A model generated the notes under the pieces. The model searched no databases and was not told where the DNA came from. It saw nothing but the letters and a program-made list of their open reading frames with translations. 64,000 bases of DNA from a virus (Duplodnaviria; Caudoviricetes): positions 151,993 through 215,992 of the IMG/VR virus record IMGVR_UViG_3300033074_000233; one strand, given 5' to 3'. Within the stretch, counting starts at the first letter, position 1. Every line of letters starts with the position of its first letter. A program made the translations under genes and the position numbers. Of this stretch, positions 305 through 9,848 are shown in pieces.

Positions 305-574
305 ATGAAACTTTGCAAGAACTGTAAGCACTGCGTACAAAGCCTAACATACGATAGTTGCCGAAAGGTACACGAGGAAATTGGAGAGGTATCCTTCGTT
401 GACGGAAAGAAAAGGTGGAAACCAGCCAGCGACGGCTGGAACTCCTTAGAATACGTCAGGAAATATTACTGCGGTGTAGAAGAAGCCAAATGGTTTGAAC
501 CTGTAGGGAGATTCTCCTTCTTTGCATCCCTTGGACAAATTCTCTTTGGTGGTGTTAGCGAGACTAAGCCATGA
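305..574 (+). CDS. hypothetical Cys-rich protein
   Basis: GGAAG RBS, CxxCxxC N-terminus, ATGA overlap with next gene. Confidence 0.6.
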   Translation: MKLCKNCKHCVQSLTYDSCRKVHEEIGEVSFVDGKKRWKPASDGWNSLEYVRKYYCGVEEAKWFEPVGRFSFFASLGQILFGGVSETKP

Positions 575-1416
575 CAACCCCGCACTGGTACGTAGATACC
601 TACATTCTGGAAGGCAAGCCTGAGGCCTTTGACAAGATTCGCAAGGCTCTTGAGAACTATCAGACGACATACACAAAGTACATTCCATTTTCCGAAAGAC
701 AAGAGGGTCTGGACTCAGTATTCAATCCGTATCAGTTGAACCTTGTGTATGGAACGCACGGATTTGTTCGCAATATGCAGAACACCTTTGGTAAAGGTTC
801 TATCAGTCCGTATATAACTGAATCCGAAATGGAGTGCACACATTACTATCCCAAGTTGCCTGCAGAGTGGCTGCTAAACGCAGGCTGCTTCTTTGTACCG
901 TTCGGAATGCTCGCTGCATCGGTTGCTACTTTTTGTGGTCATTCGGAAAAAATGTTTGTTCGTCCGAACTCTGGATTCAAGTCTTTTATTCCGACACAGA
1001 TTGATACCACGAGACAGTACAAAATTCAAGAGGGCGTCAAAGAAATAGCCGATAAGTATCAGGTAACTCCAGACACTTTATGTCTGGTTGCTTACCCTCG
1101 GGAACTTTCCTTTGAGATTAGATACGTTATCGTAGACCGTGAAGTTGTCTCCGCTTCTTACTACCGTCTTAACGGAAAACACTATTTAAAGGAATGCTTG
1201 GAAGTAGGACCTTATGAGGCCAAACGGCTAGCCGAAAGGATGGCAGCGCATGCCTGGCAACCAGATGTGGCCTATATGTGTGACATTGCACTGACATACC
1301 CTGGACTCTGTAAAATAGTAGAGTTGAACGCCTTCTGTTGTGCTGGTCTTTATGAATGCGACTACGACAAGGTTTTCAAGGCCGTTACCGAAGCCTATAT
1401 GCGGAGAGAGGCATGA
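571..1416 (+). CDS. ATP-grasp domain protein (R2K/DUF4343-like)
   Basis: Motifs FVRPNSGFKSF, EIRYVIVD and DIA...KIVELNAFCCAGLY typical of stand-alone phage ATP-grasp ligases. Confidence 0.75.
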   Translation: MTTPHWYVDTYILEGKPEAFDKIRKALENYQTTYTKYIPFSERQEGLDSVFNPYQLNLVYGTHGFVRNMQNTFGKGSISPYITESEMECTHYYPKLPAEWLLNAGCFFVPFGMLAASVATFCGHSEKMFVRPNSGFKSFIPTQIDTTRQYKIQEGVKEIADKYQVTPDTLCLVAYPRELSFEIRYVIVDREVVSASYYRLNGKHYLKECLEVGPYEAKRLAERMAAHAWQPDVAYMCDIALTYPGLCKIVELNAFCCAGLYECDYDKVFKAVTEAYMRREA

Positions 1417-1967
1417 ACTATCTGACCGATCCAGAAGGTTCCAACCACAAGGTTGATACTGACACCCACGTTTTCTTTTATGAGCAGGACTTTTACGTTC
1501 TCTCGAACTTCTCCTCGTTTGAGGTATTCTGGCCATACGTAAGGGATGACGATTACATTACTATGTGGCATAAGACCTCAGAGCATCTGTACCACTTCCT
1601 TAAGTTTTGGTTCCACATGAGTACCAAGCAACAAAAAGAAGTTGCCTTGAAGATATACCACGCAAGGTCAGCGCACGACGCCTTCAATATAGCACAGACT
1701 TACAAAGGTCTACGTCGTCCTGATTGGGACAGTGTAAAATTCGTCAACATGAAACAGATCCTAATTGAAAAGGTCAAGTGCCACGAATACGTGAGGCGTA
1801 AACTCCTTCAGACAGGTGATCGTATCCTTGTGGAAGATTCCTGGCGCGATGATGTTTGGGGCTGGGGTCCAAACAAAGACGGACAGAACATGCTTGGCAA
1901 ACTCTGGATGGAAGTACGCGAGGAAATTAGGCAGCAGGAGAGTCAGAATGGACAGCCAAAAGTTTAG
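1413..1967 (+). CDS. NADAR (YbiA-like) family N-glycosidase
   Basis: LSNF, SEHLYHFLKF, RPDWD..K, LLQTGDRILVEDSWRDDVWG.G..GQNMLGKLWMEVR; start at ATGA overlap 1413. Confidence 0.92.
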   Translation: MNYLTDPEGSNHKVDTDTHVFFYEQDFYVLSNFSSFEVFWPYVRDDDYITMWHKTSEHLYHFLKFWFHMSTKQQKEVALKIYHARSAHDAFNIAQTYKGLRRPDWDSVKFVNMKQILIEKVKCHEYVRRKLLQTGDRILVEDSWRDDVWGWGPNKDGQNMLGKLWMEVREEIRQQESQNGQPKV

Positions 1968-4566: not shown

Positions 4567-5459
4567 ATGACTCCTGAGGAAGATAGATACAGAAGGTACA
4601 AGGAGTTCAATCGGGATCGCTGGTCTAGTGCGGAACTTTATGCAGGCATCTTTGTCGTAGGCCTTATTACTTGTGGTGCCCTTTGGTGGCAATACTACAA
4701 GTTCTGCGAGTGTCGCCAAGTAGGCCACGGTATCCTGTATTGCTTAGCCAGTTTGTTTTAGGGAGGTTGGCATGAACAGGAACAAACTGATTATCCAGTT
4801 GCAAAAAGAACTCAAGCAAATGAAATGGGCTGGTTGCTCAGGCGATCAAGCAATGGACGAACGCTGGGACGAAGCCATCGCTGCTGTCCAGAACCGTATC
4901 GAACAGTTACTTTCACTGGACGCATTAGATACCGTGCGCGAGACTCTGATACCTATAGGTAACATTATACCTCCGTGTACTAGCCCTGAGCACAATCCAC
5001 CAAGTCAACTGTACGTTCCTCCTGATACCAATTATACCCACACTTGTCCATCATGTGGTGCTAAATCTACTCTGGGTACACCTATAATGTTTCTTGGCAA
5101 ATCACTTGGTGGACTAGATGGCCCTTGATATAGAAAAGCCAACCTTCACGTACTTCGTCAAAGATAAACCTGAGTGGATCAAACTTGGTAAGTACGTCAA
5201 CTGGCTGTTGAAAGAGCAGATTACAGGTGCGCCCGGTGTCTCTGGTACCTTTGCCTTGAAGATGTGTCCTGGTCCTGATGGATGTTTTCTCAGTGCCGAC
5301 TTTTGGGCTTCACCTCTTGGTCAAGGTTATCAAACATCTATCACGGGTTATAAGGAACTGGACGTATGGCAGCGTTCTGTAAAGTATGCAGACGATTTAC
5401 GCAAGCAAGCAATAAAATACATAGCCAAGACTGCCAAGAAAACCAAGAGGAAAAAATGA
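4567..5459 (+). other. three small hypothetical CDSs (4567-4761 TM; 4772-5128 Zn-ribbon; 5118-5459)
   Basis: Tightly packed ORFs with RBSs or overlaps. Confidence 0.6.
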
Positions 5460-6622
5460 AACAAACTAGTGCTGTCACCACTTATGGTTCTGTGGAAATG
5501 CCCAATAGCATTAAAGACTTCCTAGATAGAGGAGGTGTTAGACGCCACACTCTATATAAAGAGCCTCACGACGAGGATGATATTCCAAACGCAAATCCAA
5601 AGAACAAAAAGATTGTTGTCCTGTATCACGATAAGTGCTGGGACGGAACAACGGCTGCTTGGTGTGCCTGGCTCAAGTTGAAACACTCTGCTGTTTATAT
5701 TCCAGTGAACTACAAGAAGCCTCTGCCTAATGTAGATTGGACGCGAGTGAAACAGGTTTACATTCTGGACTTCTCCTATAACCGTGAAGTCCTTGACGAA
5801 CTCTATGCAGTAGTCAATGGCAACCTCGTTGTCCTCGATCACCACAAGACGGCCGCGAAAGAATTGAAAGACAGGCACTACGCTTGCTTCGCAAAGAACC
5901 TTTCCGGTGCTGGCATGTCGTGGATGTATTTCCATGAGAAGTTTACGCTGCTTGGCTTGTCTCGGTGCTCTCACCAAGGCTGGGGATCGAGCAAGGCCTC
6001 AGGCACAATGCCGAAATTTGTTTACTTCGCCCAGGATTACGACTTGTGGAAGTTCAAGGATAAGGATACCAAAGCGTTCCGTGCTGCACAGGATATGTTT
6101 CCTCGCACGATAGACACAATACAGAAGATACACGACGCTCGGGTTAACGGAACGAACCCGATGAACATGGACCAATTGATTAAAAAGGGCAAGTTCATCC
6201 TCGAACAGAAAACGAAGATGGTCAATGAAGCAGCCTCTACCGCTTTCAGAATGACCTTCCCAATTCCAGGTGTGAATGAGTCTGAGACACTACTTGCAGA
6301 AGGCTATGGTGTAATCTCCTCAAATCCGAGCATTACCTCTGATCTTGGCAACGTACTTGCAAAGCGCGCAGCGAAAGAAGGTCTGGGTGGCTACTCCGTT
6401 GTGTTCAGCCTAAACGGCAAGTCTATGCAAAGTGGTGAGGTCTTTCTGTCGATTCGATCCGTTAAGCACGTTGACATTTCGGACTTCGCTCTTGCTTATG
6501 GTGGAGGCGGTCATGCACAGGCTTCTGGCTGTACCTGGAACTACGCTTTCTTCCTGCAGTTCCTGGGTCACCTGGGCATAAAGGCCCTGGACAAACAAGA
6601 TGAAAAGGTTAAGAGGAAGTAA
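5456..6622 (+). CDS. DHH/DHHA1 phosphoesterase (NrnB-like nano-RNase)
   Basis: YHDKCWDG, ILDFS, VLDHHKT, QDYDLWKF, S.RS, GGGGHAQASG. Confidence 0.92.
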   Translation: MKQTSAVTTYGSVEMPNSIKDFLDRGGVRRHTLYKEPHDEDDIPNANPKNKKIVVLYHDKCWDGTTAAWCAWLKLKHSAVYIPVNYKKPLPNVDWTRVKQVYILDFSYNREVLDELYAVVNGNLVVLDHHKTAAKELKDRHYACFAKNLSGAGMSWMYFHEKFTLLGLSRCSHQGWGSSKASGTMPKFVYFAQDYDLWKFKDKDTKAFRAAQDMFPRTIDTIQKIHDARVNGTNPMNMDQLIKKGKFILEQKTKMVNEAASTAFRMTFPIPGVNESETLLAEGYGVISSNPSITSDLGNVLAKRAAKEGLGGYSVVFSLNGKSMQSGEVFLSIRSVKHVDISDFALAYGGGGHAQASGCTWNYAFFLQFLGHLGIKALDKQDEKVKRK

Positions 6623-6956: not shown

Positions 6957-7784
6957 ATGCAAATGACCAGTTTCGCCGAGCGCCTGATTGCGTTCAACGA
7001 TATGTACCGCCTTCCGATCAGTCTGTCGCCGACGCTGAGTTGGGCACATGCTAGTAAGCACCCTCGTGGTAACAACACCGAAATTCCCAGCAGCGTTCAG
7101 GTTCACGAAGACTGGGCTGTTCAGGTCAACAACTTCTTCAACATTCTGCGTGAGGAACTTGGCGAACTGGACGACCTCCAAGAAATGTTTGACTCGGAGT
7201 CCGAAGCGGACGAGTTCGACATTCTCACGGCCATTGCTGACTGGCTGAGCGACATTGCCGTATACTCAATGTCTGAGGCTACCAAGTACGGCGTAGCGGA
7301 CTACGTTCCGAACTTCATCTATACAGATCATGCCTCACTTGGAGTTGCCTACTCGGAACTCGACCAGATGGAAAGCGCGATCATGTCAGTAGGCGAAGGT
7401 CTGACGCAACTGGTTGACTATCACGAAACGATCCTTGTTGGTCAGCCGTCAGCAAAGAACATGGCCAAGTTCCTTACGGCTCTTATCGCACGTTGCTTCC
7501 ACGAGGCCGAGCACTTCGGCTTCAACCTGTATGACACTCTGGAAATCGTAATGGATTCCAATATGTCGAAACTGGGCGAAGACGGCAATCCGATCTATGA
7601 CGAGCGTGGCAAAGTCAAGAAAGGCCCAGGCTACTGGAAGCCTGAGCCGAAGATTCGTGAGTACATCACGTCCTTGTTTGAATTGGATGATTCCGAAGAC
7701 GAAGAACTGGAAGACGACGAGGAAGATGAAGACGAAGAAGATGACGACCTCGAAGTCGATGGTACTGAGGAGATTGAGAAATGA
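6957..7784 (+). CDS. MazG/dUTPase-like NTP pyrophosphohydrolase with acidic tail
   Basis: LREELGEL..ADWLSDI and VMDSNMSKLGEDGNPIYDERGKVKKGPGYWKPEP; Asp/Glu-rich C-terminus. Confidence 0.85.
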   Translation: MQMTSFAERLIAFNDMYRLPISLSPTLSWAHASKHPRGNNTEIPSSVQVHEDWAVQVNNFFNILREELGELDDLQEMFDSESEADEFDILTAIADWLSDIAVYSMSEATKYGVADYVPNFIYTDHASLGVAYSELDQMESAIMSVGEGLTQLVDYHETILVGQPSAKNMAKFLTALIARCFHEAEHFGFNLYDTLEIVMDSNMSKLGEDGNPIYDERGKVKKGPGYWKPEPKIREYITSLFELDDSEDEELEDDEEDEDEEDDDLEVDGTEEIEK

Positions 7785-8254
7785 AACTGCCTACTGGTCA
7801 GACAATAATGCCGCACCAGTTTAACGTAACCTTCAATGGAAATCCCGTTGAAGGTCTTACGGAATGGATTGACGATGTTTGCATCGACTACGTTGAACAG
7901 AAAATCGGCCTGTCTTTCCTGCTTGCTTATGACAAAGACCCCGATAACACACTGTCCCACCAGAAGTTAGTGGCTCTTATGTCTGTTCCAGAGACAACCA
8001 TGGAAGTGCATATCCTTACCCCGTCTAACGAGGAGGTATGTAAAGAAGTATTCCATAAATTGAAAATTGCAGAACTATACTACGGGTTGAACGCTTGCCT
8101 TGTATCCGGCGACAACTCAACTGTTCTTGACAACGAAGATGAGGAAGAACCAGACACTAGACCACGCAAAGTATCTATGTTCGACAACCAGGTGAATGTT
8201 TCTGCTTCCATCAAATTCGGAGTAACTAGCAATGGCAACGGGCAACTCTCCTGA
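7781..8254 (+). CDS. hypothetical protein, weak tail-tube-like pattern
   Basis: ATGA overlap; FNVTF...MEVHILTPSNEEV...LYYGLN is only loosely reminiscent of gp19-type tubes. Confidence 0.55.
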   Translation: MKLPTGQTIMPHQFNVTFNGNPVEGLTEWIDDVCIDYVEQKIGLSFLLAYDKDPDNTLSHQKLVALMSVPETTMEVHILTPSNEEVCKEVFHKLKIAELYYGLNACLVSGDNSTVLDNEDEEEPDTRPRKVSMFDNQVNVSASIKFGVTSNGNGQLS

Positions 8255-8819
8255 AGTATCCGGTACAGCGAACGTGCCCATGCACCTGCGTTTCAAGTGG
8301 TGGCGTGACCGTGTATCCTACAGCATCACCTCGCGTCTATCCCAGTTCTTTCTCAGACTCGCCTTTCGTTTTGGCGACCGTGAGAGCAAGCTGGTAAAAC
8401 ACGCAGAAGCCGAGATGCGCCGCGCTGGATTGTACGACGCTGACGCCGACTACGGTGGAATGCTACCACACGCGGTAATGCAACTGGTACGTATTCACTC
8501 CATGCAAGGTCACAGTGGCTTCTCACATGGCTACACTCTGGCCTTGTTCAACAAGGTAGTGAACTTCCAAGTGCTCACTCCGATCACGGATGACCCAGAA
8601 GAATGGAACGAATGCTCGATCATGATGGGTCGACCTAGCTGGCAGAACAAACGTCAGTCTTCTTGTTTCTCCGATGATGGTGGCAAGACGTATCGTGATA
8701 TTAACGAACGTCCCATACACACGGACGAAACTGGAGAAACTTATACCAAAAGTAGTGATGAGGCACCGTTGCATATATCTAAGCCACATAAGGGTAATGT
8801 GGATGGCCAGCCCGGTTGA
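8232..8819 (+). CDS. conserved phage hypothetical protein
   Basis: QGHSGFS, LTPITDDPEEW, QNKR.S..F.D motifs. Confidence 0.7.
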   Translation: MATGNSPEVSGTANVPMHLRFKWWRDRVSYSITSRLSQFFLRLAFRFGDRESKLVKHAEAEMRRAGLYDADADYGGMLPHAVMQLVRIHSMQGHSGFSHGYTLALFNKVVNFQVLTPITDDPEEWNECSIMMGRPSWQNKRQSSCFSDDGGKTYRDINERPIHTDETGETYTKSSDEAPLHISKPHKGNVDGQPG

Positions 8820-8987
8820 ACACAAACTTGAGGATGTAGAGGCTAGGTTGAAAGACCTACGTGGACACATACCTCCGAACCTTGAGTTTGCTATTCAGGA
8901 CTTGATAGCGGTAGCGCGCCATCAGCAAAACGAGATAGCCCAGTTGAAGCGCCGCGTCCCTGAGGATGACGGTCGTTAGGAATCTAT

Positions 8988-9208
8988 AACATTCACAACC
9001 ATCAGAAACCAAGTCAGCCAAGGGCTTGTCAAAACTGCGGGCAATTTTCTTGGCAGTGGATAGGTAACTGCTCGTTCTTTCCCGTAGTCCTGCAATTCGC
9101 TTGCACAATCTGGCTCTGACCCATGAGTGCGGAAATAGCGGTTGTGTTTGTTTACTGTGGACCCGCCGAGTCCCAGCGTGAGGTGTGTGGCTGACTTCAC
9201 CCCTCACG
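8988..9208 (+). ncRNA. candidate structured RNA / cis-regulatory leader upstream of denV
   Basis: Non-coding gap with multiple nested and pseudoknotted complementarities including G-U pairs; see findings. Confidence 0.5.
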
Positions 9209-9237
9209 GATAAGGCATATATTAGTGGAGGTCAAGT

Positions 9238-9675
9238 ATGACCAGAATAAACATTATAGACCCAGCCGAGTTGTACGATCAACACCTAATGGCCGAGCGC
9301 AAAGAGATACTCCAACTCTGCGGCTCCCTCAGACGTTCGCTCGCCAGTTCTCGTGGCGTAAACATTTCCCGCATTCCTTCTAAGTTCACCCTTAATCGTG
9401 GCCATGTCCTTTTCTTCTATGACAAGGGGTATTACCTTCACCAGCGTTTTCGTGCTGTGACGAAGGAAATGATTAAGCGTGGCTTCAATCCCGATCAAAG
9501 CATCCTGTTCCCAGCTACCTTGTGGCCTAGCCATCTCTATAACGACTGGTCTCCCTCTAACGAGGATGAGGCCATTATTCGTTTCCGCATCGCCCATAAA
9601 CTGGCCATGAAGCCTAACTGGTATAAAAAGACACCAGTAAAAACACACGTTATTGCGTGGGCAAGGGCTCAGTAA
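9238..9675 (+). CDS. denV: pyrimidine dimer DNA glycosylase / endonuclease V
   Basis: MTRIN..DP.EL.DQHLMAE..E, FTLN.GHVLFFYDKG.YL, K.AMKP.WY; GGAGG RBS. Confidence 0.95.
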   Translation: MTRINIIDPAELYDQHLMAERKEILQLCGSLRRSLASSRGVNISRIPSKFTLNRGHVLFFYDKGYYLHQRFRAVTKEMIKRGFNPDQSILFPATLWPSHLYNDWSPSNEDEAIIRFRIAHKLAMKPNWYKKTPVKTHVIAWARAQ

Positions 9676-9703
9676 TTAGACCTCTCAAAAACAGCGCCTT
9701 TTA

Positions 9704-9848
9704 AGCAAACTTTTGATTCTATTGACTACCTACACCAACGCTCTAAAATGGCCGTTTTTACGCGAGAAAAACGCTTGTTTTTAGTGCTTTTTTATGCTAT
9801 ACTGTAGATGCTAGAAAACGTCGAAAATACGGCTATCAAAAGTTTGCT
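9704..9848. repeat. 14-bp perfect inverted repeat flanking a promoter (cassette 1)
   Basis: AGCAAACTTTTGAT 9704-9717 and ATCAAAAGTTTGCT 9835-9848. Confidence 0.9.
9775..9803 (+). promoter_or_regulatory. sigma70-type early promoter
   Basis: TTGTTT-17 bp-TATACT with extended -10 TG; a second TTGACT-16-TAAAAT at 9722-9749. Confidence 0.75.

Follow-up and report, generated by a model that had tools for sequence, protein, structure and literature searches.

What occupies the 258 nt of non-coding DNA (8980-9237) between the small gene orf58 and the pyrimidine-dimer glycosylase gene denV of this uncultured giant phage? The gap is taken to begin at 8980 because orf58 ends just before it. An initial annotation, made from the letters of the window (the whole stretch of 64,000 nt analysed here, part of a 216-kb record), proposed a densely paired, doubly pseudoknotted element that acts as a phage structured RNA of a class that could not be assigned. 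The strings and pairings that it quoted are present in the DNA, and the downstream gene is indeed denV (Table 1). Its description of the gap as one of a few large ones is half right: the gap is among the larger ones, but a crude ORF map of the record contains about 30 gaps of more than 200 nt. The comparative evidence indicates that 8994-9216 is a selectively maintained, + strand structured RNA and a new family, outside Rfam 15, of narrow distribution. The probability that it is a real functional RNA is put at roughly 0.85. The core of the initial proposal is thus upheld by sequence conservation, five covarying helices, the lack of a conserved reading frame and the lack of a match in Rfam 15, whereas much of the detailed fold is not.

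The amount of pairing in the gap was presented in that proposal as special, with a partner available for nearly every base, but any 50%-GC sequence of this length would be expected to show as much. Folding of the 258-nt gap yields a minimum free energy (MFE) of -77.7 kcal/mol versus -74.8 +/- 5.1 kcal/mol for dinucleotide shuffles; the z-score is -0.57 for the + strand and -1.17 for the - strand. The element alone has a + strand z-score of -0.95, and values of about -1 are obtained in five of the six lineages, so that + strand scores of -0.6 to -1.0 stay within chance and folding is no better than in shuffled controls. The shuffle test has little power for pseudoknotted RNA, and MFE used in this way would have wrongly discarded what appears to be a genuine structured RNA.

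A blastn search with 8400-9800 against 50,697 phage records gives no match, denV loci in the public phage, IMG/VR and JGI collections are at most 56% identical and none is syntenic, and a Tad3 peptide scan of sequence collections yields nothing. About 90 loci in IMG/VR, JGI metagenomes and GTDB genomes contain conserved DNA motifs of the element, but all are chance matches and none is matched by a covariance model (CM). A large protein collection contains denV homologues at 84%, 74% and 66% identity, and the contigs of these homologues, with further members of their 90% clusters, constitute the set of relatives. Five further lineages of uncultured phages share the order Tad3 - orf58 - ~260-nt gap - denV (carrier loci L022-L027 and L115-L119). 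The most distant syntenic relative, L028 (denV 66%), has the order Tad3 - orf64 - denV with a 25-nt spacer and lacks the element, which means that denV does not need it. That spacer was considered as a deletion scar, but it aligns to the element no better than shuffles do, which leaves gain and loss of the element indistinguishable.

Conservation of the gap is confined to a sharply bounded segment. The gap can be aligned with the relatives over its entire length, and a sliding window against L022 shows an identity plateau of 82-88% exactly over 8994-9216, compared with 55-72% in the flanks. Measured over this segment as a whole, identity amounts to 86-89%, against the same 55-72% for the flanking genes. 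Overall, the element is 88% identical to that of L022, whereas Tad3 and orf58 are each 62% identical, denV is 72% identical at the DNA level and its third codon positions are 51% identical. The reverse pattern is found in L115 and L116, in which identity to the window is 95-97% for the flanks (orf58 and denV) but only 68% for the element. In these contigs (L115 1541-1776 and L116 677-912) a divergent version replaces the 5' half of the element, with the fold kept and P1 and P3 fully compensated. This mosaic allele points to recombination in or around the element and to more divergent carriers that must exist outside the present sample. It also suggests that the element is a module in its own right, with a history separate from that of the neighboring genes.

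The element is present in a single copy in the 216-kb record, as judged by blastn at word size 7 and by both CMs. A 13-mer that it shares with another site in the genome is at chance level. Repeat or MITE-like mobile elements and diversity-generating retroelement (DGR) template repeats were considered and dropped, there being no further copies in the record.

Table 1. Coordinates of the structured RNA element, its parts and the genes around it in the window
Feature	Position	Strand	Remarks
ATP-grasp R2K protein	571-1416	+	upstream of Tad3
NADAR-domain protein	1356-1967	+	PF08719, 1.7e-27
DHH/DHHA1-like phosphoesterase	5366-6622	+	relatives in Caulobacter, Ralstonia and Vibrio jumbo phages
Tad3-family protein (type I Thoeris inhibitor)	8232-8819	+	PF25185, E 6.7e-33
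orf58	8803-8979	+	small gene upstream of the element; hexamer coding score +0.68
Whole conserved structured RNA element	8994-9216	+	CM match 8985-9216; CM R1/R2 280/260 bits
P1	8994-9000 / 9140-9146	+	7 pairs, 100% of cells paired
5' strand of proposed pseudoknot	9011-9020	+	perfect 10-nt complement of P7 loop 9188-9197
P2' (tentative)	9019-9029 / 9092-9103	+	encloses P3-P4; from RNAalifold on the MAFFT alignment
P3	9035-9041 / 9081-9087	+	both partners changed in 4 of 7 pairs
P4 hairpin	9052-9057 / 9067-9072 (9052-9072)	+	9-nt loop with conserved GGA; 100% paired
P5 arm (tentative)	9101-9132	+	apical part 9110-9126 variable
U-rich linker between P1 and P6	9147-9154	+	0 of 8 positions vary
P6 hairpin	9155-9176	+	3+4 bp, one bulge, 7-nt loop
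P7 hairpin	9177-9208	+	7+3 bp, apical 10-nt loop 9188-9197
Single-stranded 3' tail (GAUAAGGC)	9209-9216	+	1 of 8 positions varies
denV (pyrimidine-dimer glycosylase)	9238-9675	+	PF03013 1.5e-15, phrog_1183 3.5e-40

Evidence for the fold comes from compensatory change. A CM built from four sequences recovers all carriers at 183-285 bits, and covariation was assessed in eight distinct rows aligned to the CM, all from one orthologous locus. Standard pairs fill 98.5-99.4% of the cells of the supported helices. Eleven pairs are changed on both sides, compared with 4.7-4.9 +/- 1.2-1.3 in shuffles (0 of 500 reach 11, phylogeny being ignored in this test) and 0-2 in controls in which the pairing is slid. 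A structure-blind control, MAFFT followed by RNAalifold on the seven full-length distinct sequences, arrives at these helices again and counts 13 pairs in which both partners have changed. These comparisons indicate that P1, P3, P4, P6 and P7 are maintained by compensatory changes, with at least 11 independent double substitutions by our count. The compensatory changes in homologues that the initial annotation had proposed to look for therefore exist.

Individual helices differ in how this support is distributed. P1 has one A-U/G-C double change and, in addition, two changes of the wobble-preserving type. The stem positions of P3 are 86% variable, yet 98% of its cells remain paired. P4 has one double change, G.U to U.G in L115. 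Two pairs are changed on both sides in P6, which is 100% paired, and three in P7, which has two wobble changes in addition and varies at 41% of its stem positions while none of the 10 positions of its apical loop varies. Both 3' hairpins, 9155-9176 and 9177-9208, had been proposed from the single sequence. P2' and P5 are tentative: the two double changes in P2' are both confined to L115, and P5 has only wobble-type changes (C-G to U-G), its inner pairs differing between the two alignments. The result is an aptamer-like fold in which covariation backs five helices and the junctions and loops are invariant. This substitution pattern shows selection acting on a specific multi-helix fold and on the identity of particular unpaired nucleotides.

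The same alignment assigns a strand. Supported helices contain 23 G.U or U.G cells and 0 A.C cells, a combination that only RNA of the + strand fits, the sense strand of the neighboring genes. The earlier argument that G-U pairs favor this strand is confirmed.

Several other proposed pairings fall away. The core of the proposed outer helix, 8994-9000/9140-9146, is P1, but its extension 8988-8991/9149-9152 is unsupported. The nested helix 9002-9011/9111-9119 and the hairpin at 9091-9105 find no comparative support among the six lineages. The hairpin 9017-9030/9040-9054 is unsupported as well: a substitution in L115 breaks 9017-9022/9049-9054, while the partner change keeps P4. Tested jointly, these unsupported pairings are 81.5% paired, which is the shuffle level, with 0 double changes and with outright breaks. 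One of the two proposed pseudoknots, 9034-9041/9081-9088, does correspond to a covarying helix at 9035-9041/9081-9087, but this is P3, which is simply nested once the hairpin 9017-9030/9040-9054 is dropped. The competing, switch-like pairings likewise lack comparative support.

The second pseudoknot, between the apical loop of P7 and 9011-9020, fares better. The complement is perfect and is always kept: both strands are paired in 100% of cells in seven distinct sequences, and the only two changes (C>U and A>G) both yield G.U. Among 300 dinucleotide-shuffled versions of the gap, 1.7% contain an inverted repeat of such length, and direct arithmetic places the chance of a perfect match to a given 10-nt loop within ~200 nt at roughly 2e-4. 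On this evidence the pseudoknot is probable rather than proven, because it contains no double compensatory change. As far as the alignments indicate, the element holds at most one pseudoknot and not two.

Known families and classes do not account for the element. Rfam 15 (4227 covariance models) gives no match at the gap or elsewhere in the window at gathering thresholds. At E <= 10, only two snoRNA-model noise matches appear in 8900-9300, and the divergent alleles give one FSE noise match in L115 and none in L117. This check, too, had been suggested initially, and the absence of a family match extends to the permissive threshold. ARAGORN reports 0 tRNA or tmRNA genes in the window, and the Rfam tRNA model has no match at the gap. 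Resemblances to SRP RNA, cobalamin riboswitches and CsrA sponges, consisting of short shared words and GGA motifs, have no Rfam support. Literature on Tad3 and Thoeris, on phage structured RNAs and on phage non-coding RNAs in anti-defense yielded nothing that describes the element. As a separate observation, the marine phage contig L002, in which denV is 54% identical, has a tRNA(CAU) directly upstream of denV at 2904-2978 (and L001 likewise), which scores 44.5 bits with the Rfam tRNA model and is missed by ARAGORN.

Gene context suggests how the element is transcribed. Genes from ~6957 to 9675 are densely packed and all on the + strand, and Tad3 lies two places upstream of the element, adjoining orf58 in all relatives, including L028. 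The orf58 counterpart is called as a gene of 58-64 aa in all relatives; family searches with orf58 return none, and its protein atlas matches are hypothetical proteins only. Together with Tad3, the ATP-grasp, NADAR and DHH-like genes look like an accessory, counter-defense-type early region. The stop codon of orf58 lies 14 nt 5' of P1. A consensus scan finds no sigma-70-like promoter before the element, and a terminator scan finds no U-tract terminator at P6 or P7, since P7 is followed by GGAUAAGGC and not by a U run. The only terminator-scan site within the element is a weak, internal 6-bp site at 9024-9042. Lacking a promoter and terminator of its own, the element is presumably transcribed by read-through from orf58 and would be an intercistronic part of an operon mRNA, directly before denV, the last cistron of its transcription unit.

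Judging from this arrangement, the element probably controls or accompanies the adjoining UV-repair gene. The reading favored here, as a cis-acting leader of denV, falls a little short of an even chance. Its position, its operon strand, its constant spacing and the lack of transcription signals of its own all point this way: the denV ATG follows the end of the conserved tail (9216) by 21 nt in six of six lineages. In the proposed mechanism, the element would be made on the sense transcript of an accessory operon, Tad3 - orf58 - element - denV. Docking of the P7 loop on 9011-9020 would tie the two 3' hairpins to the core closed by P1, giving a compact pseudoknotted fold whose invariant single-stranded surfaces may be binding sites for a protein or for a small molecule. 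The output would then be exerted in cis on denV, with its start at a fixed distance downstream: once the transcript is processed, the element could cap or stabilize the 5' end of this last cistron, and it could also, or instead, gate the loading of ribosomes.

Four results weaken control in cis. In every lineage, the denV Shine-Dalgarno (SD) sequence and AUG have the same predicted unpaired probability whether or not the element is included. In L022, conservation extends neither to the 21-nt spacer, which is only 50% identical, nor to the SD, which differs. P7 is not followed by a U-tract, and L028 keeps denV without the element. In line with the first and third of these, the search for a riboswitch expression platform finds no intrinsic terminator (no GC-rich hairpin with a U run at P6 or P7) and no alternative helix that sequesters the SD, which leaves room for a Rho- or RNase-dependent platform. 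A stimulator of stop-codon read-through or frameshifting on orf58 was considered separately and rejected: the downstream frame is not conserved, and spacer length and frame differ in L022.

A second strategy would be for the element to be excised from the polycistronic transcript and to act in trans as a stable non-coding RNA of ~215-230 nt. Such an RNA might titrate a protein as a sponge or decoy, perhaps one that belongs to a host defense, or might multimerize through the P7 loop and its complementary strand. Two of the features that weaken the leader favor this reading: denV manages without the element in L028, and no pairing connects the element with the denV SD. The element is also a discrete module with sharp conservation borders, its L115 allele has been exchanged independently of the flanks, P1 closes its 5' end and the P7 hairpin protects its 3' end, and many of the unpaired nucleotides in its large, complex structure never vary. 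Tad3, NADAR and the DHH-like phosphoesterase as accessory-region neighbors are likewise suggestive. However, neither a promoter nor a terminator of its own has been found, and the element is confined to one locus, always 21 nt before denV. Action in trans is the main rival of the leader but rather unlikely.

Small ribozymes are common between phage genes, and the intercistronic position would suit an RNA from a class not yet described that cleaves itself, or is catalytic in some other way, and so cuts the operon message between orf58 and denV. A multi-helix junction, a long-range tertiary pairing and invariant junction nucleotides are what such an RNA might display. However, no Rfam ribozyme model matches the element at E <= 10, a cleavage site is not recognizable, and new ribozyme classes are rare, making catalysis improbable.

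There is also only a slim chance that the gap is functionless, recently exchanged or hitch-hiking DNA in which the pairings are fortuitous. The unremarkable MFE z-scores, the clear evidence for mosaic exchange at the locus and the small number of lineages known would all fit. Fortuitous pairing does not account for at least 11 independent double substitutions in five helices when slid controls give 0-2, and recent transfer does not predict stems that vary at 40-86% of positions around loops that are invariant.

A role at the DNA level, as a site for protein binding or recombination or as a denV promoter lying within its 3' end (TTCACC-16-TATATT at 9196-9223), is less credible still and is judged very improbable. 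In its favor, the promoter-like site scores 9/12, every lineage retains the key -10 positions (TA...T), and a dimeric protein might recognize the 10-nt inverted repeat. Yet promoter-like sites are no commoner in this region than in shuffles, the predicted start would fall within the SD, and no iterons or repeats are found in the single-copy element. Moreover, 23 G.U pairs and single changes that preserve G.U are sensible only in + strand RNA.

Last, it is extremely doubtful that the minus-strand ORF (74 aa, 8976-9200, or 116 aa, 8857-9207) is a real small gene: although an open frame of 75-131 codons runs through the element in every lineage, these stretches come from different reading frames owing to 1-nt indels, a search of 5.8 billion proteins gives 0 homologues, neither Pfam nor PHROG has a match, hexamer scores are -0.16 and -0.30 versus +0.5 to +0.7 for the neighbor genes, and those genes are all on the + strand. 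The initial annotation had named evidence for this ORF as a point against the RNA, and it turns out not to be a gene. The stop-free minus-strand stretch extends over 8857-9231 in the window and homologous places, and in L115 it spans the whole element; such open stretches are probably a by-product of + strand composition.

RNAs that bind something specific usually show covarying helices together with invariant surfaces. Giant phage genomes are rich in genes without an assigned function, and their non-coding RNAs are, to our knowledge, almost unexplored. Against this background, a bolder interpretation is that the element founds a class of giant-phage RNA not described before, one that binds a ligand or a protein, either as a riboswitch-like sensor or as a counter-defense decoy or sponge beside Tad3. 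For the latter, the invariant loop and linker surfaces would bind a host immune protein or signal. This is unlikely on present evidence, although a sensor, a ribozyme or RNA-based counter-defense would open a new class. A leader or stabilizer of denV would be a useful, ordinary addition to phage cis-regulatory RNAs. Alleles of the element are exchanged as a unit among related phages, in an operon with a Thoeris inhibitor and a UV-repair enzyme.

Orphan structured RNAs provide the nearest comparison in kind. GOLLD, ROOL and raiA are larger examples. A survey of phages lists 10,006 candidate structured RNAs (csRNAs), for which a distance of <=25 nt from a downstream start codon is the criterion for “possibly cis-regulatory” (PMC10690425; Fremin, Bhatt & Kyrpides 2023). 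As the set is described there, the element resembles its members in being intergenic and conserved, with covarying helices, an unassigned function and a start codon within 25 nt, and by that description alone it belongs in kind with these orphan csRNAs (PMC10690425). Unlike the csRNA set as described, it is known from about six lineages at one locus and has no match in Rfam 15.

The csRNAs listed include gp32/gp20 (PMC10690425). Like the T4 gene 32 pseudoknot operator, a translational operator, the element is structured, probably pseudoknotted and directly 5' of a gene in a polycistronic message, but operators of that type span tens of nucleotides and overlap the ribosome-binding site, whereas the element spans ~220 nt and leaves the SD outside its conserved part. 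The T4 species 1 and 2 RNAs (rnaC and rnaD) are stable RNAs of unassigned function that are processed from a longer transcript, and they lie ~6 kb from T4 denV. Unlike them, the element has no adjoining tRNA genes, and CM R2, run with filters off on 62-76 kb of T4, stays below 7 bits everywhere, revealing no similarity to rnaC or rnaD or to other DNA in the neighborhood of T4 denV.

Other parallels are architectural. In cobalamin riboswitches, a large aptamer is joined to a 3' regulatory hairpin by a kissing loop that docks the hairpin loop onto the core. The element is similar in its size (~200 nt), its multi-helix junction closed by P1 and the predicted loop pairing between the core and a 3' hairpin before a gene. 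It differs in that no Rfam Cobalamin or AdoCbl model matches and P7 neither is a terminator nor holds the SD. Unlike riboswitches in general, it offers no clue to a ligand, and all carriers share one orthologous locus.

HK022 put and Bacillus EAR are cis-acting RNAs of processive antitermination. As with put and EAR, the element is folded, lies inside an operon on the sense strand and lacks a promoter of its own. Were the analogy to hold, the element would act on RNA polymerase during transcription, shortly before a terminator, which here would be the T-run hairpin at 9752-9780. Unlike these RNAs, the element has no sequence or model match to them (EAR is in Rfam and gives no hit) and is followed by one gene before the next promoter.

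The DNA 3' of denV contains a non-coding cassette of its own at 9722-9839, in which a promoter-like site, TTGACT-16-TAAAAT, precedes the hairpin with its T run, and a promoter of the next gene comes after these. TGcTATACT stands 6 nt upstream of an ATG at 9808 in this cassette, and the gene that starts there probably has a leaderless mRNA. The cassette is conserved as strongly as the RNA element: identity to L022 is 90-93% over 9750-9839, and even L028 reaches 91% over 9772-9815.
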